NCBI RefSeq assembly: GCF_004010195.1
Contig: NC_057718.1
Span: 72,530,626-72,594,625, forward strand
Length of the DNA: 64,000 nucleotides
From: Chiloscyllium plagiosum
Taxonomy: Eukaryota
Reading direction: 5' to 3'
The position numbers and the translations under genes were made by a program. The notes beneath the pieces were generated by a model, which made no database searches, was not told where the DNA came from, and was given only the letters and a program-made list of their open reading frames with translations. Positions 664 to 56,440 of this stretch are shown one piece after another (the first letter of the stretch is position 1; every line of letters begins with the position of its first letter).

Positions 664-1430
664 CTGCAAATTTGAAACATATCTGTTAAAACTACAGATG
701 AATAGAGGATACTAAAGTTGTTGCAAGCCACTATTTAACCAATGCAGACAGGCAAAATTATAAACAGCACAGTATTTATTTTTAATTTATTTTATTTAAT
801 AAGCATTTTCCTCAAAAGTCTCTTTTATTTTCCTGATGATTTTGGAATTTGGAATCAGCCTGTTTACAATGCACTTCTTTTTCTTGGGTACACACTTAAC
901 TCCCATACTCCACATCAAAGCTTCAAAGTGCTTGTTCTTTATTCCAATTATAATCTCAGCAATATTTTCCACATCCGCTTTTGTTCACTTTTTCATTCCT
1001 TTGAAAGTTCTTTCTTCAAAGCTTGATAAATGTTAGATTTATTTCTATTGTTTACAACAATTCTCAGAGAAACTTTATGTTTGATGCTTTTTTTTGTCCT
1101 ATATAGTATTTAGTGCAGTCCTTGCATGGTATTTGTACACTACATGCGTGGCTACAGGAAAGCCACACACACAGACCAAGTCCTAAATCATGAAAGTAAT
1201 CACCCCAACACACACAAACGAAGCTGCATCAGGACACTATTCAAAAGGGCCACAACACACTGCAGTACATCAGAACTACAAAAAGAAGAAGAGGAACACC
1301 TATACAAGGTATTCGCCAAAAACGGATACCCGCGCAACTTCATCAACAGATGCCTAAGAGAAAGACCACAGAACGAGGACATACCACAACCAAAAGGACT
1401 AGCCACACTACCATACATCAGGAACATCTC

Positions 1431-1693
1431 NNNNNNNNNNNNNNNNNNNNNNNNNNNNNNNNNNNNNNNNNNNNNNNNNNNNNNNNNNNNNNNNNNNNNN
1501 NNNNNNNNNNNNNNNNNNNNNNNNNNNNNNNNNNNNNNNNNNNNNNNNNNNNNNNNNNNNNNNNNNNNNNNNNNNNNNNNNNNNNNNNNNNNNNNNNNNN
1601 NNNNNNNNNNNNNNNNNNNNNNNNNNNNNNNNNNNNNNNNNNNNNNNNNNNNNNNNNNNNNNNNNNNNNNNNNNNNNNNNNNNNNNNNNNNNN
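1431..1693. other. Assembly gap (N run)
   Basis: 263 N. Confidence 1.
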
Positions 1694-1734
1694 TTTCAGC
1701 TGTCCGCTGTCGTGGTTGGTATATTGGGTACCCA

Positions 1735-1774
1735 GCACTGATGATGTCGCCTAGCCAGGGGACGAAACGTTTGC
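1735..1774 (+). ncRNA. Minimal type-I hammerhead ribozyme motif (PLE terminal repeat)
   Basis: GCA-CTGATGA-T-GTCGCCT agcc AGGGGAC-GAAAC-GTT-TGC: stem I GCA/TGC, stem II hairpin, ACGT palindromic stem III, GUU triplet. Confidence 0.7.
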
Positions 1775-2958
1775 AACAAAAACTTCCAGCTCGGCGAACA
1801 GAACCACAGCAACGAGCACCCGAGCTACAAATCTTCGCACAAACTTTGAATTCAATAGTGTTGCTTGCAAGTTAAAGTACAAGGAAATAAATGTGAATTA
1901 TTTTCCATTATCCCAAGATGAATCACACTCCTGTGATCTATTAATTTAATGCTCCAAAGTAAGTAATTTATTCATTTAACTGAAGTGAGAGAGAAAATGG
2001 GAATGACTAGATGAATGGACTGAATGACCTCATTTTGTGCAATAATGACTCTATCCTAAATGCTCTGGCATTCAGGTATCAGCATTTGATAAAGTCTCTA
2101 CTGTTTATTTTATTTCCACATTTGTTTATTTATCTGGATTAAAATATATTGCTCTCACTTTCTATTTGACCTTCTTGACATCTAATTTTCAAGTTGACTA
2201 CTCCTTCCCTCCCTCTTTATTAATTAGTCTATTCAATCCTGCTTGGTTGAGACGCAGCACATATTAAATTCATCAAACTGGTTTACCAACCCCACTCTCC
2301 CAACCAAAAAAACTTTCCCATCAATTTGGCTGGCACATCACACCCTGAAAATGGTATTTCATTCGGTATGCTCTTCTGACGAAGATTAGCAATAAACCAG
2401 AAAAGAAACTTCAGTGTGCCTTTCAATTTTCAATGCCAAGTCAACTAGTTGGTTATCTTCTCCAGAGTCGTTTCCTCTAGAAGGGTAGTGATTAGAAGTG
2501 ACAGCTCAATTGGGAATGGACATTTGTGTGAAAATATCATTACAACCATAACTGTCCCAGTAAGTTTCATTCTTAAATCTCAATTCTTCTTCTTATACCT
2601 CAAGCAATTCTCTCTCCAGGACCTGATGTAGTTCTAAAACTTGCTTCAACGGGTGTTCTGGTAGATGTATTGAATAAATTTAATTAGTCTTTTGTTAGAA
2701 TAAATTGATGTGTTTTCTTTCCATCTTATTCCCAGCTTTCTGAGTTTTAAACTGTTTCTTGGAATTTCAAGGGAACAATCTACTGGAACTAATGGTATCA
2801 AGGTACCTTCATAGGTTGAAAAAACATTTCCTCGACCACACCATCCAACTCAATCCACTTTCACATTCATCCTACTTGGAATACTTTTGGTAATCAGAGA
2901 ACAGAGTTGGTTTTTCTGGAATATTAAGAAATAAACTGCAATCTATATAGGGACTTAC

Positions 2959-3108
2959 TGACTAACGCATGACGCATCCATATGGAAGAAGTTAGGGTCC
3001 ATAAACAGATCAAATGCTTCTTTTTTCCAAGCTCGCCTTGTATACTGGTAGCCACTCAGACTGCTTACCAATTGGACACATGCTCGGTAACTTGGGGCAT
3101 TGTGAGCA
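2959..3108 (-). CDS. DOP1A: DOP1A coding exon (150 nt, phase 2/2)
   Basis: ttacttctag|T GCT...AGT CA|gtaagt; [49 protein letters not shown](H). Confidence 0.95.
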
Positions 3109-3539
3109 CTAGAAGTAAATCACAATAGTTTTAGAGCCAGAAGAAAAGCTGAGCAATAGTTTATATTGAATAAAATTGAACACTGTATGTATAAGAAACC
3201 ACAGAAAATAACAAGGATTTCCAACACAGAATCCACAGACCCAGAAGAATCACCAGCTTATAATGCTTTAAGTGCAGTATGTCTTAAAATGTATCAAATT
3301 CGTGTCCAATTGTACAGATTTCAATGCACATTACAAGTGTGAGAAAGTAATCGTTATTGCTGTTCAGGTTCAAGTGAAATATGACAAAAAAAACTGTTTT
3401 GCTCAATAAAAATGAGATGATTACTGAATGCATAAAAACAAAGGACATCTGTACATAAAATAATTAAGCATCTGAATTGTACAAATCAATTTTACAGAAT
3501 ATGTTTTCTACTTAAACTCAGCACCAACTTGCTGGTAGT

Positions 3540-4100
3540 GTGTCCAAGTTTGCAGAAGACAAATAAGGTGAGTGGTAGAGCAAAGCGTTCAGAGGACTGT
3601 GAAACTTTGCAAAGGGACATAGATAGTTGGGACATAGGTAGTTTATGTGAATGGGCAAAGGTCTGGCAGATGGACTACAATGTTAATAAATGTGAAGTCA
3701 TCTGCTTTGGTAGGAATAACAGTAAAAAGGACTATTATTTGAAGGATAGAAAATTGCAACATGCTACAGTGCAGAGAGATAGAAGTAAAGATGATGGGTG
3801 AAACAAGGACAAGAGGGCATAGCCTCAAAAGATTTAGGACTGAATTGAGGAGGAGCTTCTTCATGTAGAGAGTTGTGAAGCCAAGGAATTTCCTGCCCAG
3901 TGAAGTAGTTGAGGCTTCTTCACTAAATGGTTTCAAAGCGAAGACTGATCATTATTTGAACAGTAATGGAATTAAACGTTACAGTGAGAGGGGGGTAAGT
4001 GGAGCTGAGGCCATGAAAAGATCAGCCATGATCTTTTTGAATGGCAGAACACGCTCATAGGGCCAGATGGCCTACTCCTACTCCTAGTTATGTTCTTATG
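3540..4100 (+). mobile_element. CR1 LINE 3' fragment (decayed)
   Basis: LQRDIDS...WAKVWQMDYNVNKCEVICFG; 3' UTR ending tatgttcttatg. Confidence 0.8.
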
Positions 4101-5857: not shown

Positions 5858-7957
5858 CTAAAAGACAGCAGAAAATGCATACTTTACATACAGCACACTG
5901 TAATAGGTATTCAATAATATGTTTTGTGTTGGTATTGTATAACAAAGAGTTATGGCAACAAAAAAGAGAAATTAATGGAGAACTGAAACTGTTCAGTGGA
6001 CCAGAAACATTGACTCTGCTTTCTCTCCCCGATGCTGCCAGACCTGCTGAGATATTCTAGCAATTTTTGTTTTTTCTTCAAATTTCCAGCATACACAGTT
6101 GCAGAGTCATAGAGATGTCATTGGTTAGGCCACTTTTGAAATATTGCGTGCAATTCTGGTCTCCTTCCTATCAGAAGGATGTTATGAAACTTGAAAGGTT
6201 CAGAGTCATAGCGAAGTGCAGCATGGAAACAGACCCTTCAGTCCAACTCATCCATGCTGACCAGGTATCCTAAACTAATCTAGTGCCATTTGCCAGCAGT
6301 TGGCCAATATCCCTCCAAAGCTTTCCTATTCATGTACCCATCCAGATGCCTTTTACATGCTGTAATTGTACCAGCCACCACCACTTCCTCTGGCAGCTCA
6401 TTCCATACACACACCACTCTCTGCAGGAACAAGTTTCCCCTTAGGTGTCTTTTATACCCTTCCCCTCTCACCCTAAACCTATGCCCTCTACTTCTGGACT
6501 CCCCCACTCCAGGGAAAAGACCTTGTCTATTTATCCTATCCATGACCCTCATGATTTTATAAACTTCTATAAGGACACACCTCAGCCTCCACTCCAGGGA
6601 AAACAGCCTCAGCCTATTCTGCCTCTCCCTATAGCTCAAATCCTCCAACCCTGGCAACATCCTTGTTAATCTTTTCTGAACGCTTTCATGTTTCACAATA
6701 TCCTTCTGATAAGAAGGAGACCAGAATTGTACGCAATATTCCAAAAGTGGCCGAACCAATGACCTTCCAACTCATATTCTTAATGCTCTGACTAATTAAG
6801 GAAAGCATACTAAACACCTTCTTCATTATTCTATCTACCTGCAACTCTACTTTCAAGGAACTACGAACCTGCCCTCCAAGGTCTCTTTGTTCAGCAACAC
6901 TCCCTAGGACCTTACCGTTAAGTATTTAAGTCCTGCTGTGATTTGCTTTTCCAAAATGCACCACCTTGCATTTATGTAAATTAAATTCTATCTGCTAATC
7001 CTCCGGCCCTTGGCCCATCTGATCAAGATCCTGTTATATTCTGAGGTAACCTTCTTCACTGTCCACTACACCTCCAATTTTGGTGTCATCTGCAAACTTA
7101 CTAATTATACCACCTAATTATTTATATCAATGATAAAAAGCAGTGGACTCAGCATCGATCCTTGTGGCACTCCACTGGTCACAGGCCTCCAGTCTGAAAA
7201 ACAACCCTCCACCACCACCCTCTGTCTTCTACCTTTGAGCCAGTTCTGTATCCAAATGGCTAGTTCTCCCTATATTCCATGAGATCTAACCTTGCTAACC
7301 AGTCTACAATGAGGAACCTTGTTGAACGCCTTACTGAAATCCAGATAGGACACATCCACTGCTCTGCCCTCATCAATCCTCTTTGTTACTTCTTCAAAAA
7401 CTCAAGCAAGTTTGTGAGACATGATTTCCCACGCAGAAAGCCATGCTGGCTATTCTTAATCAGTCCTTACCTTTCCATACATGTGTAAATCCTGTCCCTC
7501 AGGATTCCCTCTAACAACCTGCCCACTACAGATGTCAGACTCACTGGTCTATAGTTCCCTGGCTTTTCCTTACCACCTTTCTTAAATAGTGGCACCATGT
7601 TAACCAACCTCCAGTCTTTCGACTCCTCACCTGTGACTATCGATAATACAAATAGCAAGGGGTCGAGCACACAGCTCGATCCCTTGCTCCCACACAGTTC
7701 TAGGGTACACCTGATTGGGTCAGAGGGATGTATCCACTATTATGCATTTCAAGACATCCAGCACCTCCTCCTCTGTAATTTGGACATTTTTTAAGATATC
7801 ACAATTTATTCCCCCAAATTCTATATCTTCCATGTTCTTCTCCACAGTAAACACTGATGCAAAATACTCATTTTGTATCTTCCCATCCACTGCGGCTCCG
7901 CACATAGGCTGCCTTGCTGGTCTTTGAGGGACCCTTCACTCTAACAGGAATGTAACA

Positions 7958-8197
7958 GGGGTGGCATGGTGGCTCAGTGGTTAGCACTGCTGCCTCACAG
8001 CACCAGGGTCCCAGGTTCGATTTCCTCCCACAGTTTAAAGATGTGCAGGTGAGGTGAATTGGCCATGCTAAATTGCCAGTAGCGTTAGGTGCATTAGTCA
8101 GAGGGAAATGGGAATGGGTGAGTTACTCTTTGGAGGGTCAGCGTGGAATTGTTGGGCCAAAGGACCTGTTTCCACACTGTAGGGAATCTAATCTAAT
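7958..8197 (+). mobile_element. HE1-type tRNA-derived V-SINE, internally deleted, nested in CR1 A
   Basis: A box TGGCTCAGTGG, B box GGTTCGATT, LINE-like 3' end and aatcta tail. Confidence 0.85.
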
Positions 8198-8591
8198 ATA
8201 TTTTCTCTGGACTTTTGTTATGTCATTTCTGAAGGCTTCCCATTTTCCAGCTGCCCCTTTACATGCGAACATCCGCCCCAAATCAGTTTTTGGAAGTTCT
8301 TGCCCGATACCGTCAAAATTAGCCTTCCTCCAATTTAGAACTTCAACTTTTAGATCCAGTCTATCCTTTTCCATCACTATTTTAAGACTAATACAATTAC
8401 GGTGGCTGGCCCCAAAGTGCACCCCCACTGATGCTTCAGTAACCTGCTTTGCTTTATTTCCTAAGCGTAGGTAAGATTTTGCACCTTCTCTAGTAGGAAC
8501 ATCTACATACTGAATCAGGAATTTTTCTTGTGCACACTGAGGAACTTCCTCTCCATCTCAATCATTAACACTATGGCAGTCCCAGTCTATG

Positions 8592-8729
8592 GAGAAAGTG
8601 AGGTCTGATAGAAAAGCACAGCAGGTCAGGTAGCATCTGAGAAGCAGGGTCCTGATGAAGGGCTCTGGCCTGAAACATCGATTCTCCTGCTCCTCGGATG
8701 CTGCCTGACCTGCTGTACTTTTCCAGACA
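8592..8729. mobile_element. Short PLE terminal insertion (inverted arms) with degenerate hammerhead, 9-bp TSD
   Basis: TSD CAGTCTATG at 8583-8591 and 8730-8738; CTGATGA AGGGC tctg GCCT GAAAC ATC at 8652-8679. Confidence 0.8.
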
Positions 8730-8976
8730 CAGTCTATGTTCGTAAAATTAAAATCCCCTACCATAATCACCCTATTATTCTTAGAGATAACTGAAATCTC
8801 CTTATAAATTTCTTTCTGAATTTCCCACTGAGTATTAGGGGGTCTATAATACAATCCCAAGAAGGTGACCATCCCTTTCTTATTTCTCAGTTCTACCCAA
8901 ATAACTTCCCTGAATGTATTCCCAGGAATATCCACCCTAAGTACAGCTGTAATGCCATCCCTTACCAAAAACACCA

Positions 8977-11900
8977 AAGAACAAATAAAATTTACAGCCC
9001 AGGAACAGGCCCTTTGGCCCAAGCCGATCCAAATGTACTGTCTAAACCTGTCGGTCAATTCCTAAGCATTTGTATCCCTCTGCTTTCCACCTACTCATGC
9101 ATCTGTCCAGACGCATCTTAAATGAATCCACTGTGCCTGCCTCTACCAGCTCTGCTGGCAACGCGTTCCAAACGCCCACCACCCTGTGTGAAATACTTGC
9201 CGCGTGTATCCCCCTTAAACTTTCCACCTCTCACTTTTAAAGCATGACCTCTGGTTATTGAATCCTTCACCCTGGGAAAAAACTTGTCTCTATCAACCCT
9301 GTCTATACCCTTCATGATTTTGTAAACCTCAATCAGGTTCTCCCTCAATCTTCTTTTTTCTAGTGAAAATAAACCTAACCTACTCAACCTCTCTTCATAG
9401 CTAGCACCTTCCATACCAGGCAACATCCTCGTAAACCTTCTCTGCACCCTCTCCAAAACGTCCACATCCTTTTGGTAATGTGGCAACTAGAACTGTACAC
9501 ATATTCCAAATGCGGCCAAACCAATGTCTTGTACAATTTTAATATGACTTGCCGGCTCTTATGCACAACACCCCATCCAATGAAGGCAAGCATATTATAT
9601 GCCTTCTTGACCACTCTATCCACCTGTGCAGCAACCTTCAGGGTACAATGGACCTGCACTCCCAGTTCACTCTGCCCATCAACTTTTCCCAAGGCTCTTC
9701 TGTTCATTGTATAATTCGCTCTAGAATTAGACTTGCCTAAATGCATGACCTCACATTTGTCTGGATTGAAAGCCATCTGCCACTTTTTCGCCCAACTCTC
9801 CAGTCTATCTATATCTTCCTGTTTTCTCTGATAGTCCCTTATGCTTTCTGCTACTCCACCAATCTTTGGGTCACCTGCAAACTTGCTGATCATACCAACA
9901 GCGCCCTCTTCCAGATCATTTATGTATATTACGAACAACAGTGGCCCCAACATTGACCCCTGTGGAACATTTCGAGAAACTCCCTTCAACTACTACTCTG
10001 TAACCTGTTGCTCAACCAGTTCTTTATCCACCTAGCTAGAAAGATGGGGTACTGGGCTAATGGTCGGATACTTGGTAGTGTGGATGAGCAGAGAGATCTT
10101 GGTGTCCATGTACACAGATCTTTGAAAGTTGCCACCCAGGTAAATAGTGCAGTGAAGAAGGCATATGGCTTACTGGCTTTTATTGGTAGAGGAATTGAGT
10201 TCCGGAGTCCTGAGGTCATGTTGCAGTTGTATAAGACTCTGGTGCAGCCGCATCTGGAGTATTGTGTGCAGTTTTGGTCGCCATACTATAGGAAGGATGT
10301 GGAGGCACTGGAACGGGTGCAGAGGAGGTTTACCAGGATGTTGCCTGGTATGGTAGGAAGATCGTATGAGGAAAGGCTGAGGCACTTGGGGTTGTTTTCA
10401 TTGGAGAAAAGAAGGTTTAGGGGTGACTTGATAGAGGTGTACAAGATGATTAGGGGTTTAGATAGGGTTGACCGTGAGAACCTTTTTCCACGTATGGAGT
10501 CAGCTATTACGAGGGGGCATAGCTTTAAATTAAGGGGTGGTAGATATAGGACAGATGTTAGGGGTAGATTCTTTACTCAGCGAGTCGTGAGTTCATGGAA
10601 TGCCCTGCCAATAGCAGTGGTGGACTCTCCCTCTTTATGGGCATTTAAGCAGGCATTGGATAGACATATGGAGGATAGTGGGCTAGTGTAGGTTAGGTGG
10701 GCTTGGATCGGCGCAACATCGAGGGCCGAAGGGCCTGTACTGCGCTGTATTCTTCTATGTTCTATGTAACACCCTGCACACCATGTGACTTCACTTTCTC
10801 CATTAGTCTACAATGGGGAACCTTACTAAAGTCCGTGTATATGACATCAACAACCCTTCCTTCATCTAACAACTTGGTCACTTCCAGAACTCTATTAAGT
10901 TGGTAAGGCATGATCTCCCCTGCACAAAACCATGTTGCCTATCACTGATACGCTCATTCTTTTTGAAATATAAATAGATCCTACCTCTTTGTACCCTCTC
11001 CAGCAACTTCCCCACCATCGATGTGAGGCTCACTGGTCTGTAGTTACCCAGAATATCCCTACTACCCTTCTTGTATAGGGGGACAACATAAGCTACCGTC
11101 CAGGCCTCCGGCACCTCACCTGTATTTAAGGATGCCACAAAGATATCTATCAGGGCCCCAGCTATTTCCTCTCTCTCGCCTCCCTCTGCAACCTGGGATA
11201 GATCCCATCCGGTCCTGGGGATGTGTCCACCTTAATAGCCTCTAGCATACCAACACATCTTCCCTACTTATGCCAACGTGATCCAGACTAATCAAACTTC
11301 TATCTCTAATCTCAAGATTCATCATGTTCATCATGCTTCCCTTTTCCTCTTGGCTAGTTGTACAATTTCTCCTGTCATCCACAGTTCACGAATCTTTCCC
11401 TTCCTATCCTTTGCCTTCAATGGGACATGCCTATCCTGCACTACCGGTAACCTATCTTTGAAAGCCTCCCACATCTCAAATGTGGACTTCCCTTCAAATA
11501 GCTGTGTCCAATCCACATTTCCCAGCTCCTGAGTAATTTTGATATAATTGGCCTTGGCCCAGTTTAATATTCTTACCTTAAGACCACTCTCTTCTTTATC
11601 TACGAGTATTCTAAAACTTACAGAATTGTGGTCACTGTTCCCAAAGAAATCCCCCACTGCAACGTCTACCACTTGTCCTGGCTCATTCCCCAGTACCAGG
11701 TCCAATATGGCCCCTTCCCTCATCGGACTATTGACAAACCGCTCTAGAAAACTCTTCTGGACGCCTCGGACAAATTCTACTCCATCCAGACCTCTGACGC
11801 TAAGTGTATCCCAGTCAATGTTGGGAAAATTAAAATCTCCCATTACCACTACCCTATTGCCTCTGCATCTATTCATAATCTGTTTACCTATTTGTTCTTC

Positions 11901-13572
11901 TTCCTCATGCTCACTGTTGGGAGGCCTGTAGTACAGCCCCAACAATGCAACTGAACCCTTCTTATTTCTCAGCTCCACCCATAATGCCTCACTACCCAAG
12001 ACCGCCATAGTGTCCTCCTTTAGCACAGCCGTGATATCGTCATCATGCCGTTCCTTCAACCAAGTCTCTGTGATAGCAATAATATCATACTCCCAGGCAC
12101 CAATCCAAGCCCTAAGTTCATCTGCCTTACACACTATATTCCTTGCATTAAAGTAGATGCATTTCAGGCCACCAGTTCTTCTGCGCTCACATGCTCTCTG
12201 CCTATTCTTCCCTTTATTAATGTTATCTGCATAATTCTTACCGTCTCCACCTCGCTGCCTACTTGTCTTCTCTTATGGTTCCCAGTCCCCTGCCACATTA
12301 GTTTAAAACCTTCCCAACAGTAGTAGCAAAAACTCCTCCAAGGACATTGGTTCCGGTCTGGTTCAGATGTACACCGTCCCTTTTGTAATCGCCCCACCTT
12401 CTCCAGAAGTTGGTCCCAATGTCCAACAAATCTGAACCCCTCCCTCCTCCACCATCTCTCAAGCCACGTGTTCATCCTACCTATTTTTTCATTTCTACGC
12501 TGGCTAGCATGTGGCACTGGTAGTAATCCCGAGATCACTACCTTTGAGGTTTTTCCCCTTTAACTTCTCTCCTCGCTCCCTGAATTCTTCTTTCAGGACC
12601 TCATCTCGCTTTCTACTTATATCGTTGGTGCCTATATGCACCAAGACAACTGGCTGTTCACTCTCCCCTTTTAGAATGCTCTGCAGCCGATCAGTGACAT
12701 CCCTGACCCGAGCACCTGGGAGGCAACATACCATCCGTGAGTTCAGTTTTCGGCCACAGAACCGCCTATCTACTCTCCTCACAATAGAACCCCCTATGAC
12801 TATGGCCCTACGAGTCTTTTTCCCACCCTTCTGAATAGCAGTGCCCACCAGGGTGCCATGATCTTGACAACTGCTGCCCTCCCCTGGTGAGCCATCTCCC
12901 CCAACAGTATCCAAAACAGTATACCTGTTTTGGAGGGAGATAACCACAGGGGACACCTGCATTGCCTTCCTACTCTTTTTGTGTCTTTTAGTCACCCATT
13001 CACTATCTCCCTCAGCAATCCTAATCTGCGGTGTGACCAGTTTACTAAATGTGCTATCCACGACCACCTCAGCACTGCAGATGCTCCACAGTGAGTCCAT
13101 CCGCAGCTCCAGAACAATCATGCAGTCAAACAAGAGCTGCAGCTGGACACACTTCTTGCAAGTGTAAGAGTCAGGAACATCAGGCAAGTTCCTAACTCCC
13201 ACATCAAGCAAGAGGCACATGCACAGGCACAGGGGTCTGAGGCCCCCTGCCATTGTAAGCTTAGCTTTATATGAACTAACTGAAATCAAACAACGCACTT
13301 AAATAAATGAAAAAGAAAGATAAGAAATAAAAGCCTTACCTTACAGGGTCATTTTCTTCTGGTTAGAGGAGGGGGTGGGAGGGAGATACTTACACGTGTA
13401 GTATCTCGGGTTTTGCCACTGCCCAAATATAAATTAAGCCCTTACCTTCCCGGCAGCCCTCGCTTCACTCCTCCTTCTCTCCTCACCGCTCTGGCAAAAT
13501 GGAGGCCCGACTCCCGAGGTAAGTCCGTTTTTATGCGGGAAAACTTACCCTTCCCGGCAGCCCTCGCTTCAC
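8977..13572 (-). mobile_element. Near-full-length CR1 LINE (copy B) nested in copy A, with ORF1 (zinc-finger-like + SGNH esterase) and frameshifted ORF2
   Basis: ORF1 12164-13298 (YTCKKC; GGSIVR...CCLPGARV...HIGTND), EN 11331-12134 (AITETW, GDFN, SDHN), RT 9384-9989; tail at 8977. Confidence 0.88.
10042..10767 (+). mobile_element. Young 5'-truncated CR1 LINE (copy C) nested in copy B
   Basis: Uninterrupted ORF2 C-terminus (within ORF 10008-10691), 3' UTR and ttctatgttctatg tail; copy B resumes at caccctgcac. Confidence 0.9.
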
Positions 13573-17931: not shown

Positions 17932-20900
17932 TGTAATGTTAGGCTTAAAAATGATATCCCCAAACCAGGATTAATCATTAAGAGTTACTGGACATGGTAA
18001 TAAGCAATTGCAGGAAAATACATGAAGAACAGGCTTTGTTATGCTACACATCTAGAAATCATTGGTCAGATCACATTAGGAGCGTTATGTTCAGGTCTGG
18101 GCAACTTATTTGAGGAAGAATGTTAAAGCCCTGGGGACATTGCAAAGGAGATTTACTAGAAAGATACCAGGGATGAGAAATTTTAAATACAAGGAAAGAT
18201 CAGAGAAATCTAGAGCTAGAGCTTATTCTCTTTGAAGCAGAGAAGATTAAGAGGTGATTTTATTGAGTTGTGCAAAATAATGAACTTGGACAGAGCAAAG
18301 AAGGATATGTCAGTAGCTAGGGGTCACAATTTCAAGATTGTCAGCAATTTAGCTGAGAGTGAGACGAGGAGGAACTTTACTTAGAGTTGTTAGGATTTGG
18401 AATGCGCTGCCAGGAGGTGGATCCCATAGGAGCTTTCAAAAGAAAGCTGGAGATAGATTTAAAAGAGATGAATTTAGAGGACTATGGATATATGGATGGA
18501 GAATGGGACCAGTTAGGTAGTTCTTCTGGGAGCCAGTACAGTTATAATGGCCTCATTCGGTTCTGTAAAATTCCAGGATACTAGTCCAAAAATAGCCTGT
18601 TTTGGCTGGAAGGTAACTTGCATAAGCTTGGGAACCAACTTATGCAAAGATACAGAGACATCTGGACCTGTTTTTAACTTAAATGAAGGCTTGGGAAAAG
18701 TACTCACAAGTTGGCACTTAATATCAGATTCAGAAAAGCATTAAGATTGGGGACTTTTTCCGGCTTGTGAGACTTTCATCTTCAGCTGGTGTTTGTAAGA
18801 ATGAGCCCACAAACCTTCACCAGCAGATTGAGATTCATGAGACTCGTATCATAGAATCGAAGATAGTGCTCCAAGTGCCACTGTCGCCAAGCCGAAAGAC
18901 AGTGAGACTCATTAGTTTGCATAAGCTAATAAATTTGCTATGTATTCAAGTGCAAATTCCCTTCTTCTATTCATTTTGTTCTGAACTTAAAAAAAACCTA
19001 TTAGGTACTTTCAGCCTAACAGTACACTTGGTGCTGTGAGCAGGGTCTGAGCAAAATGTTGGTTGGAAAGCAGGATCCTGCTCCCACACTTTAATGAGAC
19101 TGAAACATTCCATTCCAACAGCTGGTTTGTTCTCAGTATCAGTGAACCATTAGCAATTGTCATAGTTACATACTTGCTGTATCACAGTTGCAGTGACTGA
19201 ATTGGCTTTATATTTGAAGCTGTGAGAAGCAGTAGTCTTTGAAGTTATCATGTGACTGGCATAATCAAAAATACGACAGGTAGATAGTTTAATAAAAAAG
19301 TTAGGATCGGGACAGCAAGAGGCGTACTGTATTTGTAGAAATATGTGATGGTATTTATGAGTGCATTCTTGATAGACTTTCAGAGGTTATGAAAAGAATA
19401 GCTGAGTTAGAAACTGTCCATAATAAGTTAGCAGATAAGGAAAATAGAAAGCTGCAGAATTGGTAAAAGAATGGAAGGCTAAAAATGACTACCAACAGGA
19501 AAGCACTGTACCCAATACTCGGAAAGACTGCAGGTAGTCCAAACTTTATGAATGGACAAACTGGATATTGATATTGAAACCAATGATAAAATGGACTTCT
19601 CTCTTGGTATAGCACAAATTAAAACATGCCAGACAGATATCTATGAACAGACAGCAGCTGGGACTTTATCTCGCAAGATGAGGTAGGTAACCTTGACAAT
19701 GAAATCGATGATGTTTCTCCAACTGTTACATCGCTGTGTAATAAGAAAAAGCAGGTATGTAATGTCTCCCAGGAGTCAGAAGGGATGCACGAAGGAATAG
19801 AACCATTAGACCACATGTCTTTTTGCCCCAGTGAAGTTAAAAAAAGTCTGCTGTGAAAATTGGATTATATTCACAGAAAATTCTCATGACAGTTACAAGG
19901 ATTGCAACCTTTCCATTGAACCAAGATCAGTACTAAAACAAGGACTAGTCTGAAAGCATCATAGGTTCAAGACTTTGCAGAGGGTGTAGAAGAGGATATC
20001 ATGTTGCAGCTTCATAAGATTTTGATTCAGGCATACTTAACAGAATTCCAATCAATTCTGCTCTCCACATTACAGGAAGAATGTGAGGCTTTGCAGAGGG
20101 TGCAGAAGAGGTTTACTGGGATGCTGCCTAGATTAAAAGATAAGAGCTATAAGGAGAGGCTAGAAAAACTCAGGTTCTTTTCTCTCGAACGGTGGAAGTT
20201 GTGGGGAGACTGGATAGAAGTCTAAGAAAATCATGAGATTCATAGATAGGGTTGAATTTTTTTCTCCAGAGTTGAAATGTCTAAAACTAGGAGCATTTAA
20301 GGTTGTCGTCATTACAATCATTCCATTGCCAGTGTGATTTTGTTTCTAAAAGTGAACTGAATTGGATGATTTAGCCACCACCAGGAACAGTGGAACCAGG
20401 CAAACAGGATACATAGGAGAAAGTGAGGACTGCAGATGCTGGAGATCAGAGCTTAAAAATGTGTTGCTGGAAAAGCGCAGCAGGTCAGGCAGCATAAAAG
20501 GAGCAGGAGAATCGACGTTTTGGGCATAAGCCCTTCTTCAGGAATGAATTACAGAGGATACATAGACATCCTTCACCAACTTTTAATTTTTCATAAAATC
20601 AAGAATGCATAGCATAATCTTAGAATACCTATGTAAATATGCAGAAGTGGTTGTTACATCTGATGTAACTAAGGAGCAGGAATGCATGGCAAAAATGCAC
20701 TGAAGAATGGATATACTTGACAAAATAGTTAGTGTGGGCTGGAAGAGCACAAAAACAGTTTAAATAATAAGGCACTGACACACAATCCATAGACAAACTG
20801 ATTGTAAAACAATAACAGTAGTATTGATGAGGTGGAGGTAAAAATACAATTGGAGACAAAGAGGGGAAATATTGAAGAGCTGGAGAATCTAAATTCACGT

Positions 20901-25771: not shown

Positions 25772-26332
25772 CTTTATTTAAAGTTGGGATTTTCTGGAAC
25801 AACAACCAAAATTTAAATGAGGGTTTCTGAAGATTCTTCATTTACAGTAGAATCATTAAAGAATCAGAATAGATTTGTATGCAACTTTAAATTATACTGC
25901 ATCTGAAGTCATTACGGCTTCCTGAAATTTTAGATAAGCTTTCAGAACAGGGTCAAACATCTTCTGTGTTATTCATCCCAGTGACTTGTTTATAATTCCT
26001 CAGTTCACTTCACAGTTGAACACTGGATGCATCTTAGATGGTTTGATTTCACTCTCCATCAATGCTATCTTCACCCAAAACTTTTGGGTAAATATGACAG
26101 TCTGCCTTGAACAGTTAAGTCTCGAAAGGAGTGAGAGTCTACCAGTTCCAGATCCATGCAGGCAACAATAATTCTAAATTAACTGCATGTCAAGAGCCTT
26201 TTCCCAAAGCACTTGATCAAATCCAATTCACATACAATACTTAAGTCCGCATTAGAATATTTTGACATTAAAAATGTAATCCTGCCTCTCTGCGCCTCCT
26301 ACCTACCCTGAATAAATTCTAGTTCTTCTTAC

Positions 26333-26437
26333 CCAAGGATAAGAAATTGCCCTGGTGGTGGTAGATAAAGTTGAACAGAATCTTTCAGCAATGTTAAAAG
26401 GGATGGCCAGCTGTCTACTAAATTCTGCACTGAAATC
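26333..26437 (-). CDS. DOP1A: DOP1A coding exon (105 nt, phase 2/2)
   Basis: ttctcttcacag|G ATT...CTT GG|gtaaga; ISVQNLVDSWPSLLTLLKDSVQLYLPPPGQFLIL(G). Confidence 0.95.
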
Positions 26438-26801
26438 CTGTGAAGAGAATGTCATATCAAGTTAGGAAGCTTCAAAATCAGCGTAGATTGCAATCAAAAT
26501 TTCATTGTTATTTATGTTAAACTTTACATGACATGACAGAATGCACACTTTTTTCAAAGTTACTTTCCCCTTTTCCACAATATGGTAAAGTTTCAAGTCA
26601 TAAACAATCACAGAAATACTGAAGAAATCAACAGGTCTGGTGACATCTTTGGAAAGAGAATCAAACATAATTTTTTGAGTCAGATATGATCAGTGGTGGA
26701 AGAAATTAATGTCTAAAGTATCAGTTGGAGAGCTAAGCAAGCAGTTGAAACTTTATTGCTGGAACAGCACAGCAGGTCAGGCAGCATCCAGGGAACAGGA
26801 G

Positions 26802-26837
26802 ATTCGACGTTTCGGGCACAGGCCCTTCTTCAGGAAT
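26802..26837 (-). ncRNA. Minimal type-I hammerhead ribozyme motif, intact core
   Basis: ATTC-CTGAAGA-A-GGGC ctgt GCCC-GAAAC-GTC-GAAT on the minus strand. Confidence 0.8.
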
Positions 26838-27104
26838 GAGCAGAGAGTGTTCAGCAGGAGAAGATAAAAGGTAGGGAGGAGGGACTTGGAGGAGGGGCGT
26901 TGGAAATGTGATAGGTGGAAAGAGGTCAAGGTGAGGGTGATAGGTCGGAGTAGGATGGAGGCGGAGAGGTCAACAAGAAGACTGCAGGTCAGGAAGGCGA
27001 CGTGGTCGACGGTGCCCTCCACCGCATCTCCTCCACTTCCAACTCCCCTCCTCCAAGTCCCTCCTCCCTACCTTTTATCTTCTCCTGCTGAACACTCTCT
27101 GCTC

Positions 27105-27140
27105 ATTCCTGAAGAAGGGCATGTGCCCGAAACGTCGAAT
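27105..27140 (+). ncRNA. Minimal type-I hammerhead ribozyme motif, intact core
   Basis: ATTC-CTGAAGA-A-GGGC atgt GCCC-GAAAC-GTC-GAAT. Confidence 0.8.
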
Positions 27141-27180
27141 CTTCTGTTCCCTAGATGCTGCCTGACCTGCTGTGCTGTTC

Positions 27181-27748
27181 NNNNNNNNNNNNNNNNNNNN
27201 NNNNNNNNNNNNNNNNNNNNNNNNNNNNNNNNNNNNNNNNNNNNNNNNNNNNNNNNNNNNNNNNNNNNNNNNNNNNNNNNNNNNNNNNNNNNNNNNNNNN
27301 NNNNNNNNNNNNNNNNNNNNNNNNNNNNNNNNNNNNNNNNNNNNNNNNNNNNNNNNNNNNNNNNNNNNNNNNNNNNNNNNNNNNNNNNNNNNNNNNNNNN
27401 NNNNNNNNNNNNNNNNNNNNNNNNNNNNNNNNNNNNNNNNNNNNNNNNNNNNNNNNNNNNNNNNNNNNNNNNNNNNNNNNNNNNNNNNNNNNNNNNNNNN
27501 NNNNNNNNNNNNNNNNNNNNNNNNNNNNNNNNNNNNNNNNNNNNNNNNNNNNNNNNNNNNNNNNNNNNNNNNNNNNNNNNNNNNNNNNNNNNNNNNNNNN
27601 NNNNNNNNNNNNNNNNNNNNNNNNNNNNNNNNNNNNNNNNNNNNNNNNNNNNNNNNNNNNNNNNNNNNNNNNNNNNNNNNNNNNNNNNNNNNNNNNNNNN
27701 NNNNNNNNNNNNNNNNNNNNNNNNNNNNNNNNNNNNNNNNNNNNNNNN
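27181..27748. other. Assembly gap (N run)
   Basis: 568 N. Confidence 1.
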
Positions 27749-27958
27749 TTCCCCCTCCCCCCACCTTGTCTCAGCCGAATCCCTCCAGCCCGGCTCCGCC
27801 TTCCTGACCTGCAGTCGTCTTCTTGACCTCTCCGCCTCCATCCTACTCCGACCTATCACCCTCACCTTGACCTCTTTCCACCTATCACATTTCCAACGCC
27901 CCTCCTCCAAGTCCCTCCTCCCTACCTTTTATCTTCTCCTGCTGAACACTCTCTGCTC

Positions 27959-27994
27959 ATTCCTGAAGAAGGGCCTGTGCCCGAAACGTCGAAT
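27959..27994 (+). ncRNA. Minimal type-I hammerhead ribozyme motif, intact core
   Basis: ATTC-CTGAAGA-A-GGGC ctgt GCCC-GAAAC-GTC-GAAT. Confidence 0.8.
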
Positions 27995-28244
27995 CTCCTG
28001 TTCCCTGGATGCTGCCTGACCTGCTGTGCTGTTCCAGCAATAAAGTTTCAACTTTGATCTCCAGCATCTGCAGACCTCACTTTCTCCCCGAGCTAAGCAA
28101 GCAGGCTAGTTTGGTTTGGATGGTGTTAGGCTTTGCAGGTTTTATTTGCAATTGCAACAATCCAGGAAGGTTAGGAGTGTTTCATCAAAGCCCTGACTTG
28201 CGCCTTGTAGGTGGTGAGCAGGATTTGGCGTGTCAGAGATGAGT

Positions 28245-49908: not shown

Positions 49909-51755
49909 GTGGTTGGAAGTTTATTTGCTGAGTTGGTAGATTTGTTCTCAGACATTTCTCAGAAAAAGAACCAGAAGAGATATCACCCACCACAATAGCC
50001 CAAGACACATAAATAGAAAGCAGGATAGAAAACCAGCGCTTTATCAGAGGCTCACTGATGACATTACCTAGCATGGTGAAGAAACATCCGAGAACAAATC
50101 TACCAGATCAGTAAGCAAACTTACAACCACATCTGTTCTACAATGTGGATTCCAGAACGACACAGAACTCCCATTTGCCACCTTAACCACTTCATCCAGT
50201 TGTGGTCCCTCTGATCCTCGGTGCTTCAATCTGTGCTACAAATCTTATTTAAAATCACAAACTCTTATGGGCGCAATATGCTCAAATTAGCCCAAAGATG
50301 GGAAACCAATACCATCTGACTGAGTGCCACCTACCAACAACTGTGCTTCCTACACAAATGCCTCAGGAAACAGGTACTACCACGATGTATCAAATACAAA
50401 CCATCTCTCAACTCGCCACAATCTAGAAGAACATCAGAACAGAATGGCTGCAGGATGCTACAATAAATGATGAATGATAACCACAATCAACTCCACAAAT
50501 GAACCAGGGATTTGATGCCAAATAACTCTGTACTCTAATGCAGCTGGCCATGAAAGGACAAGTATGTTAAAACCCCACGAGCCATCAACACTAAACGACA
50601 GCCAAACTCTCAATACACGGACAATTCAGAAACTTGGATAAAGAATGTGTCAGACTGACCACTCTCAGACACGGAAAAACCTGTCTTAGTACAAGGGATG
50701 AATTTCAACCACATGGACAAAAAGGACTTCCTAGCAGCACTGGAATCCACCCTGAAAGACAATGGACTTACGGATGAAATCCAGCAGGCCATAAGACAGA
50801 CAATAGCACTAACACTAAGCACAAAGAAAAAGGTGAACACACTGGAAAACTCTGGAAGGAGTCAGAAAAGACAGAAATATCATAATCCTAGCAGCAGGCA
50901 AAGGATGCATGACCATCATCCTGAAAGAACAAAGATTGAAAAAGCAAAAACACTACTCGCAGACACTGACAGATGGCGATGGACCTGACTCCATGGTTAG
51001 AAAAGCATATTATAGCAAACCCTGAGGAAACCTCACAAAATAGGTGAAATTAACAAGACAGACCTCCAAAGAATGAAACCTGAAGGATCCAACACACCCA
51101 GTTTCTACAAATTACCCCACTTGCTGCCCCACCCCCCCACACCCCCCAAGACCTGTAGCCTCATTTCCTAGTGCACCGACATACAGACTAGCAAAGGAAC
51201 TGCAATGCAAACTGAAACACCTAGTAAAAGACTCAAGCCATTCCACCCAGGAATTCCTTGACATCACCAAAGACACCAAGGTGTCTTTGTGAAGACCTGA
51301 TTCACATTAATAAACATCACTATAGCCAAAGAAACACAAGGACACAAACACCTGAGAGTACCAACTCCATCAGCAAGGACAGCATCTCAAATTAGTAGAC
51401 CTGTGCCTTACAACTCATTCCACCTTCAACGACAAGACCTACAAACAAATCAATGGAACACCCATGGGAATCACCAATATCAGGACTCTTATCAGAAGCA
51501 GTTATGCAGAGATTAGAATGAATAGCCCTTCCCATGATCCAGCCCATGCTTTGGATCCACTACATGGATGACACCTTTGTCATCACGAAGCGCAATAAAT
51601 TAGAAGAAATTCACAAACACATAAACAACATCCTTACTGGTATAAAGTTTACCAAAGAGGAAGAGGACAACAGACTCCTCTTCCTAGATGTCACAGCAGA
51701 ATGAAAAGCCAATAGAGAGCTGTAGACCAGCGTCTGCAGGAAAGCCACTGTCTCA
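49909..51755 (+). mobile_element. Penelope-like (Poseidon-type) element: terminal repeat with hammerhead, decayed ORF with RT
   Basis: FLHKCLRKQVLP N-terminus, GMNFN, TYKQINGTPMG, WIHYMDDTFV (YMDD at 51561-51572), FLDV; hammerhead-like motif at 50051-50092. Confidence 0.88.
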
Positions 51756-52395
51756 CACAGTCCTACAGATACACACACTCCTACAGACTCATAACACTCA
51801 TGTAGACCCTCTCTCATACACAAGGTCTCTCTCATACGCTCACACACACACACTCCCACACTCCCTCTCACAGGCTTATACCCCTTTAGACTCACTCCTA
51901 ACACCCCACCCCCATGCGCACGCACACACATGCACACACGTTTGTGGGGTGAATTTGTATGTGCAGAATTACATTTTATTTTGCTCAAAAAAAACTGCAT
52001 GAATCCATTCTGTAAATCTATTTTTTTAAGATTAGAATCAGCCTGAACATTGTAGCACAGACAGTCTCACACAGGGCAGCTCTTAATGCGTTATCTGAGA
52101 CGACATGACAATGATTGTTAAGTTCACTTGAGAATGTAACTTTAAAAAGTTCTGCGATTTATATATGAAAGAACTGAAACCAACATGTTCATTCTAAAAA
52201 ACGAGACTCTTAAACAAACCAGATCTTTTTCAATATAAAATTTCAGTCACATCAGACTATAAGCTTTTGCTATAAATTATGTGTCTTATGATTTTATACT
52301 CCAAAACCATCTGATGTAGGAGCAGCGCTTCGAAAGCTAGTGCTTTTAAATAAACCTGTTGGACTATAACCTGGTGTTGTGTGATTTCTAACTTC
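51756..52395 (+). mobile_element. Second PLE family 3' part (CA-rich spacer, hammerhead-bearing end)
   Basis: CAT-CTGATGT-A-GGAGC agc GCTTC-GAAA-GCTA-GTG at 52308-52342, then aataaacctgttggactataacctggtg. Confidence 0.75.
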
Positions 52396-55374: not shown

Positions 55375-55501
55375 CTTCAAATATTAATATTACAATTTAT
55401 TTAATCTTGAAATTCTCTTACATGAATCAGTCTTATAGAAAACCAATCACAAAAGTGATGAAATGACAGCCACCCAATCAAAGGAATGGCACTTGCTGAT
55501 T

Positions 55502-55712
55502 TAAACGTGTGGTCCTGAAAAAGCACAGCTTGTCAGGCATGATCCAAGGAACAGGAGAATCAATGTTTTGAGCATAAGCCCTTCATCATGATGAAGAGCT
55601 TATGCTCGAAACGTCGACTCTCCTGCTTCCCAGATGCTACCTAACCTACTGTGCTTTTCCAGCGCCACACTTTTTGACTCTGATCACCAGCATGTGCAGT
55701 CCTCTCTTCCTC
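55502..55712. mobile_element. Head-to-head PLE terminal fragments forming a palindrome centred on the hammerhead core
   Basis: Centre CTTCATCA|TGATGAAG at 55581-55596; right arm GAGC ttat GCTC GAAAC GTC. Confidence 0.78.
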
Positions 55713-56440
55713 TTTGCTGATTTAGTGTGCCAAGGAACCTGGAAGTGGATTTATAAAGTGCTCAGACTTAGAATTATAGAATGATATACCACAGCGATGG
55801 TCACTTGGACCATCATGTCAAGTACTTCGTAGTTGAAATGAAATCAGAAAAATATCTGGATCAAAGCAACATTACAGACTGAGAAAGCAATGTCAGTGGC
55901 CATCACTTGGAAATGTATAAAGAATTAATGATTGGCATGCATTTTAACGCTTGCATGACAAGGTTCTCATTGTTTGAATCAGTTAAGTAAAACGAAAAAA
56001 GGAAAATTTCATCTTAGTGATAATAATTTAAATTTTTCACTGATGGGTTTGGTTCTTATTTATAACTGTTCCTATTTAAAGGTGGTGTGTGAGGCAAGTT
56101 GATGTGACACAAAGGGTGCTTGGCACATGCTGCCAGGGGAGGTGGTAGAAGCAGATAAAGTTTAAGAGATATTTAGAAGACACATGAACAGGCGAATAAG
56201 AGAGGAATACAGACCATGATTGGCGCAGACACGGTGGGCCAAAGAGTTTGTTCCCGCGCTGTACTATTCTATGAATACAGACGGACCGGTTTAGATGAAC
56301 TCAAATTGGAAAATAGATTTTAAATTATCATGTGACCACATGTATTTTTCAACTAGACATCAGTGGATGTTTGTTTGCTATTGCCCTGTTTTCTTAAGAG
56401 TTCAAAAAGGTCAATGCACTATTTTTGCACTATTTTAAAT

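Follow-up and report, generated by a model that had tools for sequence, protein, structure and literature searches.

Does an intronic insertion that carries three hammerhead motifs act on the gene in which it lies, or is it the residue of a mobile element that brought its ribozymes along? The question is raised by a locus in a 64-kb stretch of the genome of the bamboo shark Chiloscyllium plagiosum—the whole of the DNA analysed, referred to here as the window—in which a TSD-flanked insertion in DOP1A contains two hammerhead motifs on the plus strand and one inverted copy in sense on the DOP1A pre-mRNA. We conclude that the insertion is very probably a copy of a Penelope-like retrotransposon (PLE) of the endonuclease-bearing kind, 5'-truncated and dead on arrival, which lies antisense in a 19-kb DOP1A intron, and that its hammerheads are passengers, namely the minimal pLTR motifs of the family. 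The features on which the argument draws are collected in Table 1.

Table 1. Features of the insertion, its host gene and related repeats, in order of position in the window.
Feature	Position	Strand	Remarks
Second PLE family, Poseidon type	1094-1860		ORF piece 1153-1431, 91% identical to bamboo-shark protein
Older copy, same pLTR family	8583-8738	inverted and direct arms, head-to-head	9-bp TSD
Solo 138-bp pLTR end with tail, same family	20406-20565	-	11-bp TSD
DOP1A exon downstream of insertion	26332-26437	-	35/35 residues identical to bamboo-shark DOP1A aa 1917-1951
Left TSD, 15 bp	26730-26744		exact repeat of 28090-28104
Inverted 5'-truncated pLTR arm, tail-less	26745-26999	-	255/257 identical to 27797-28053
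Minimal hammerhead core, sense on DOP1A pre-mRNA	26806-26833	-	C3 at 26833, C17 at 26806
PLE reading-frame fragment, 14 codons from 26999	26998-27040	+	family contigs extend the frame on both sides
Middle partial pLTR copy with hammerhead 27109-27136	27034-27180	+	probable gap-fill chimera or diverged donor 5' pLTR
Minimal hammerhead core	27109-27136	+	in middle copy, full core CUGAAGA...GAAAC-GUC
Assembly gap, 568 N	27181-27748		N run
3' pLTR with hammerhead 27963-27990	27749-28053	+	probable ORF stop 27805-27807, then UTR
Minimal hammerhead core	27963-27990	+	in 3' pLTR, full core CUGAAGA...GAAAC-GUC
36-bp PLE tail, one end only	28054-28089	+	absent from inverted arm
Right TSD, 15 bp	28090-28104		exact repeat of 26730-26744
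Older head-to-head copy, same family	55493-55724		11-bp TSD

Ten DOP1A exons were mapped on the minus strand of the window. With exon-edge mismatches set aside, they agree with the C. plagiosum protein at every position and show 2 differences from that of C. punctatum and 3 from that of Hemiscyllium. A Pfam search of 150 of the 183 minus-strand frames returned one match to DOP1_C and one to a LINE endonuclease, and a PDB sequence search with the exon at 26332-26437 returned no match. The insertion occupies the ~19-kb intron that runs from 45514 to 26438. The splice acceptor stands just before 26437, the inverted arm ends 307 nt upstream of it, and C17 of the sense motif was measured at 368 nt upstream, in agreement with the value of about 365 nt given in a first-pass annotation of this DNA.

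That annotation had described the locus as a single TSD-flanked insertion, and its boundaries support this. The 15-bp direct repeat that it reported was found and is exact; random placements within the window gave a match of more than 11 bp in 0 of 1000 cases, the longest being 11 bp. The inverted arm of about 255 bp was likewise found where it had been placed, and its two differences from 27797-28053 are at 27817 and 27822. The tail recurs on copies of the same pLTR family elsewhere in the window and in other family copies, seen in 30 listed contigs of sequencing run X1 that have a loose end before 26743. Two direct copies flanking the gap had also been claimed: the gap and the right copy (27749-28089) are borne out, but the middle copy starts at about 27034-27041 and not at about 27030, it is preceded by a fragment of an open reading frame (ORF), and there may be only two copies where three were counted. 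An ATG-initiated frame is open for 27 codons through the end of the right pLTR and the tail (28009-28089); in other PLEs the ORF begins in the pLTR (PMC11167929, PMC3846280).

The ORF fragment, overlooked in the first pass, lies between the inverted arm and the middle copy and outside both repeats. Logan contigs of four runs (X1, X3 and X5 from organism A, X10 from organism B) were placed on 25900-27075 (1,176 bases); the runs represent at most four samples from three studies, with X1 possibly the source sample, and those listed comprise 32 of 73,768 contig pieces and 24 of 732 loose ends. The family is evidently very large, since between 14,138 and 21,725 contigs per run fall on this 1,176-bp stretch, nearly all of them on the element. 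Among the listed contigs, a common upstream extension joins at 26998/26999 in 18, 8, 28 and 24 cases (X1, X3, X5 and X10, respectively), and a common downstream extension departs at 27040 in 24, 23 and 28 (X1, X3 and X5); read by hand, both extensions keep the frame from 26999 for ten further sense codons. Because the family continues past both ends of the fragment, 26998 is the point at which a truncated PLE body was joined to the inverted arm, and 27040 the point at which the window leaves the family's normal path.

The upstream extension ends in F-x-x-R-N-F-P, which by eye lines up in register with the thumb motif F-x-x-N-G-Y-P that Poseidon-type PLE proteins carry; this likeness and the loose-end consensus suggest that 26998-27040 comes from the thumb region of a reverse transcriptase (RT). 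Protein searches with the fragment were blank (0 of 155 candidates, 0 of 1, no Pfam match and no atlas match), a result of little weight because the queries held only 14 relevant residues or pLTR frame. Since no protein search confirmed the fragment, we treat the RT assignment as putative: what is visible of an ORF with a PLE-type RT and a GIY-YIG domain at the C-terminus is an in-frame stretch of 14 codons, with the thumb register assigned by eye and no database match. The element is probably of the Neptune type, an assignment that is graded in this way because its ORF is mostly hidden in the gap. No paper describing this shark pLTR family was found in the literature search, which did not extend to Repbase and Dfam.

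All three hammerheads had been called intact in the first pass. Full cores with GUC are indeed present, and all three copies agree with the consensus CUGANGAH...GAAA...NUH with helices I and II, but "intact" here means an intact minimal hammerhead: each motif has a 4-bp helix I, an unpaired A and a 4-bp helix II and is without helix III, in place of which there is only the palindrome ACGU (27132-27135 and equivalents). The cut sites given earlier (27136/27137, 27990/27991 and 26806/26805) are the correct C17 positions. For the three motifs, predicted pairing probabilities are 0.58-0.88 for the first pair of helix II and 0.04-0.23 for the inner pair of helix I. A minimal hammerhead without helix III needs a partner on the same strand, and the other minus-strand motifs of the family in the window (20514-20541 and 55562-55589) have broken cores; DOP1A itself reaches beyond the window, to which the partner search was confined. 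Rfam returned no match in the whole window at the gathering score and 17 matches in 26700-28150 at E ≤ 10, the hammerhead family among none of them; these weak matches are hairpin-type chance matches on the inverted repeat. As Rfam finds none, the motifs are called hammerheads from their core sequence and their stems. Neither viral contigs nor metagenome contigs yielded any locus when scanned for the hammerhead motif (0 in each).

During transcription of the DOP1A strand, synthesis of the antisense copy precedes that of the arm, and the two pair with a predicted energy of about -555 kcal/mol; this and the other fold energies given here are nearest-neighbour estimates without a positive control. 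All 28 core bases of the sense motif are paired in the 257-bp duplex with a predicted probability of at least 0.997, in line with the earlier expectation that the minus-strand motif would be trapped in dsRNA. Three things should therefore prevent the sense motif from folding: the absence of helix III, the lack in the window of an intact partner on its own strand, and its pairing in the duplex. The description of the insertion as self-neutralising is right as far as the predicted duplex goes, but the effect is a by-product of PLE integration. Nothing suggests that the hammerheads act on DOP1A, and in vivo they are presumably inert.

A 4-nt microhomology (27037-27040) links the middle copy to the ORF fragment, and the other end of the copy abuts the gap. 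It differs from the outer arms at 5 of 147 positions (27036, 27044, 27121, 27143 and 27153), all within 150 bp of the gap, and the outer arms show 0 of 147 differences from each other over this stretch. The divergence is not significant (Fisher p = 0.06, or p = 0.25 without the two junction sites), and the middle copy and both arms have two minority subfamily alleles in common. From 26999 to the probable stop at 27805-27807, which, judging from shark PLEs, is probably where the ORF ends, the distance is about 270 codons, provided that the gap size holds. Shark Neptune-type elements need roughly 250 codons over the stretch from thumb to end; in 5 of 10 motif-bearing Poseidon-type proteins 157-207 residues separate the thumb motif from the C-terminus, with a range of 85-368 over 11 occurrences. 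Neptune elements add a Zn-finger linker (CX2-5CxxC-like) between RT and endonuclease (PMC8557442). The other gap in the window (1431-1693) is no calibrator of gap size, because an inverted piece borders it.

On the simplest reading the ORF passes through the gap, and its start was overwritten during gap filling by sequence from another locus. Judged from the spacing, the gap most likely contains the remainder of the ORF, that is, the linker and the GIY-YIG endonuclease. The middle copy is then probably, though by no means surely, a gap-fill chimera over the start of the missing ORF, and the true insertion would have two head-to-head hammerheads and no tandem. This view is weakened by the microhomology, which at 4 nt is short for a gap-closer jump, by the shared alleles, and by the lack of significant divergence; a single-copy contig across 27040 may exist beyond the 32 of 73,768 contig pieces listed. 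The first-pass warning that the copy number might be mis-assembled was apt; the middle copy borders the gap and starts where the window leaves the family path. Whether the middle copy is a chimera or part of a true tandem, the element is an ordinary PLE.

The most serious competitor is accordingly a variant of the same PLE insertion, less probable but to be kept well in mind, in which the middle copy is real and derives from a partial-tandem donor whose upstream unit suffered a microhomology deletion; the locus would then consist of two direct pLTRs and an inverted one, with the body in the gap deleted or under-estimated and with three inert hammerheads. A pair of direct pLTRs together with one that is inverted is typical for Penelope, and microhomology deletions are common (PMC3846280). 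The subfamily alleles common to the middle copy and the arms, and a divergence short of significance, favour it too. The clustering of every deviating base near the gap tells against it, as does the distance separating the ORF fragment from the 3' pLTR, which is approximately what the rest of the ORF should occupy if uninterrupted. It also requires that two deletions occurred or that the gap size is about 2 kb too low, since the plus-strand hammerheads are 854 bp apart here versus 2.1-3.6 kb in full PLEs (13 of the 13 entries with two hammerheads in Table S1 of PMC4209133). A real middle copy is likewise the premise of a non-autonomous, retrozyme-like unit, which we consider very unlikely: a plus-strand transcript begun within the element would be cut twice as a dimer, and the ~850-nt monomer would circularise and move with PLE enzymes. 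The dimer geometry through ACGU proposed in the first pass is formally possible (20 of 20 base pairs in helices I, II and ACGU:ACGU are valid and nested), and animal non-LTR retrozymes derive from PLE pLTRs (bioRxiv 10.64898/2026.07.22.740005), but the tandem pair may not exist, there is no array, and the two plus-strand motifs are preceded by different sequences. The predicted cost of the dimer fold, calculated with no control, is 18.4 kcal/mol for a transcript starting after the arm and 246 kcal/mol if the arm is read through. A minimal hammerhead monomer showed no cleavage and dimers were cleaved poorly in vitro (PMC4209133), 8 of 9 Xenopus dimers were uncleaved and 1 of 9 was cleaved (bioRxiv 10.64898/2026.07.22.740005), and the PLE hammerhead of the lizard Anolis was cut only with the element's protein, with no RNA-seq ends at the cut site (PMC11167929). 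The monomer or circle that was thought to be excisable from the plus-strand unit thus finds no support, the tandem being perhaps absent and a read-through plus-strand transcript being expected to be trapped by the inverted arm. We also regard as quite unlikely a composite proposal in which a real middle copy marks a ~0.85-kb non-autonomous PLE derivative on its way to becoming a retrozyme, with a monomer or circle made from an internal promoter and with the arm as an antidote for sense intronic hammerheads. Were the antidote true, intact sense intronic motifs should be enriched genome-wide in fold-back insertions relative to antisense ones; were this the birth of a retrozyme, it would tie PLE truncation to retrozyme origin and show selection against exposed intronic hammerheads.

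A role for the host is as improbable as the retrozyme-like unit. The 257-bp hairpin would serve as an ADAR substrate or as a modifier of splicing or back-splicing, or it would permit conditional cleavage in sense when unwound. By prediction the duplex forms almost certainly in the pre-mRNA, long intronic duplexes are generic ADAR substrates, and on these general grounds the hairpin is likely to undergo some A-to-I editing, but such editing would be incidental and would make the hairpin neither a function nor a device. Domesticated intronic hammerheads do exist in amniotes (PMC6155905, section 9); here, however, the last 15 nt before the acceptor are unpaired in the predicted fold, the unwound motif would still be without helix III and without an intact same-strand partner in the window, and the locus, a single copy in a family of many thousands, shows no sign of conservation. 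The conditional intronic cleavage or editing element put forward in the first pass is therefore unsupported, the layout being one published for PLEs and recurring in older copies in the window. Least probable of all is a capture event, in which the gap conceals non-PLE DNA that lies between the two direct pLTRs and was moved in trans by PLE machinery. Cargo of this kind is known in the rotifer Adineta vaga with the same layout of two direct pLTRs, one inverted pLTR and a TSD (PMC3846280), but it again depends on a real middle copy; to the right of the gap there is an ordinary-looking ORF end followed by UTR, and the ORF fragment on the left points to a PLE body.

The insertion is young. Away from the gap the arms show 0 differences in 231 positions, which sets an upper 95% limit of 1.3% and is the only bound on its age; the earlier "very recent" is plausible, and "young" or "fairly young" is the description that is supported. 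In X1 and X3 a contig running from flank to element (25900-26768) with 0 mismatches includes 24 nt of the element, and in X5 the flank contig includes 5 nt of it; all of the junction contigs fall below the 31-base bridging standard. No empty-site loose end, and with it no sign of polymorphism, was present among the 24 of 732 listed for 25900-27075; contigs show presence and not absence. X10, from a related organism, is without cover at 26700-26739, a hole that proves nothing, and its joint at 26657-26762 begins in a repeated stretch; both were set aside. Contigs with at least 99% identity number 1,893-3,761 for the runs of organism A, compared with 223 for organism B; a lineage-specific burst of the subfamily may lie behind this difference. 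At 26620-26659 contig depth is raised to 60-180 in all four runs, apparently by a small repeat fragment in the flank. In X5 a 135-nt contig with a depth of 228 covers the DOP1A exon alone (26333-26438), against a depth of about 7 in the flanking intron, and this run may hold RNA-derived or exon-enriched material.

Several other repeats in the window belong to the same pLTR family. The copy at 8583-8738 has a piece of tail on its inverted (left) side, and its hammerhead core is present with a changed helix II. The solo end at 20406-20565, in sense on DOP1A, begins a few bases upstream of the hammerhead, the core of which is broken at G12. In the copy at 55493-55724 the inversion point is at the start of the hammerhead core and both cores are damaged; a fourth copy is a fragment without TSD. 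The PLE of the second family comprises inverted pieces at 1094-1135 and 1694-1731, a gap of 263 N (1431-1693) and a minimal hammerhead of its own (1738-1768); the two assembly gaps of the window are both inside young PLE copies. An older, frameshifted PLE body of Poseidon type with RT remains lies at 50055-51866, with a decayed hammerhead-like motif at 50055-50085. About one third of the window matches itself elsewhere, and LINE remains—presumably of CR1/L2 type—are dense at 6280-13300 and in many other places, with nested, fairly intact pieces at about 9100-13300.

Integration of the dead-on-arrival PLE copy would have begun with a staggered cut by the element's GIY-YIG endonuclease, which would yield the 15-bp TSD. 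Reverse transcription would start at the tail end of the pLTR and halt in the RT thumb region at 26998, and a second, inverted cDNA primed at a tail-less start site would produce the 255-bp left arm; the PLE tail has been mapped to two reverse-transcription start sites (PMC11167929). As it stands, the locus has little significance, being one of many thousands of copies with a layout already described between 2013 and 2021. It does carry a caution: short-read assemblies break at young PLE insertions that have inverted arms, and the sequence beside such a gap can mimic tandem ribozymes. Once the gap is closed, its near-identical arms and long TSD would make it a clean single example of how the inverted 5' arms of PLEs are formed.

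Domesticated intronic hammerheads fold as monomers with a stable helix III; no such fold is available here, and the core is paired in the predicted duplex. The insertion resembles the amniote intronic hammerheads of RECK, CTCL and DTNB (PMC6155905) in having a type I motif in sense in a host intron, but those are conserved across species, whereas this one is minimal, predicted to be sequestered, and part of a young repeat copy. With animal non-LTR retrozymes (PMC7761336; bioRxiv 10.64898/2026.07.22.740005) it shares a pLTR derivation, type I hammerheads and, if the assembly is right, two motifs on the same strand. Unlike them, it has no head-to-tail array of 150-300 bp units, and it has ORF sequence, an inverted arm and a PLE-type TSD; in the stretch as assembled, where the gap limits the view, no such array was found, and the sole tandem repeat has a 13-bp period. 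It falls outside the definition of a retrozyme in PMC7761336 because it is not a head-to-tail array and contains ORF sequence.

The closest counterparts are found among PLEs. The minimal hammerhead is defined in PMC4209133, and the motifs here agree with those described there in the CUGANGAH core, the unpaired base before helix II, the G10.1-C11.1 pair, the 4-bp helix I, the palindromic 15.2-16.2 positions and the absence of helix III. Helix II resembles that of an Acropora Neptune motif and has 4 bp, versus 7-8 bp in Schistosoma. The words "shark", "Callorhinchus" and "Leucoraja" do not occur in the one supplement file on PLE minimal hammerheads that was searched. Opposite-strand pairs 100-700 bp apart are reported in the same paper, and the legend to its Fig. 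S4A describes a 5'-truncated PLE with a second minimal hammerhead on the opposite strand at the 5' end. The typical Penelope structure has two direct pLTRs, an adjacent inverted pLTR, a TSD of 8-10 bp and an optional 31-bp tail (PMC3846280), and PLEs are known for inverted 5'-truncated copies, tails of 30-40 bp and trouble in short-read assembly (PMC8557442). The 15-bp TSD here is longer than in the examples of PMC3846280 and in the older copies in the window (9-11 bp). In its other features—a hammerhead in the 3'-end pLTR, an adjacent inverted and 5'-truncated pLTR set head-to-head, a 36-bp tail at one end only, a TSD, and a gap inside a young copy—the insertion is like the endonuclease-bearing (EN+) PLE units of the Penelope/Poseidon, Neptune and Nematis groups (Arkhipova 2013, PMC3846280; Craig 2021, PMC8557442).
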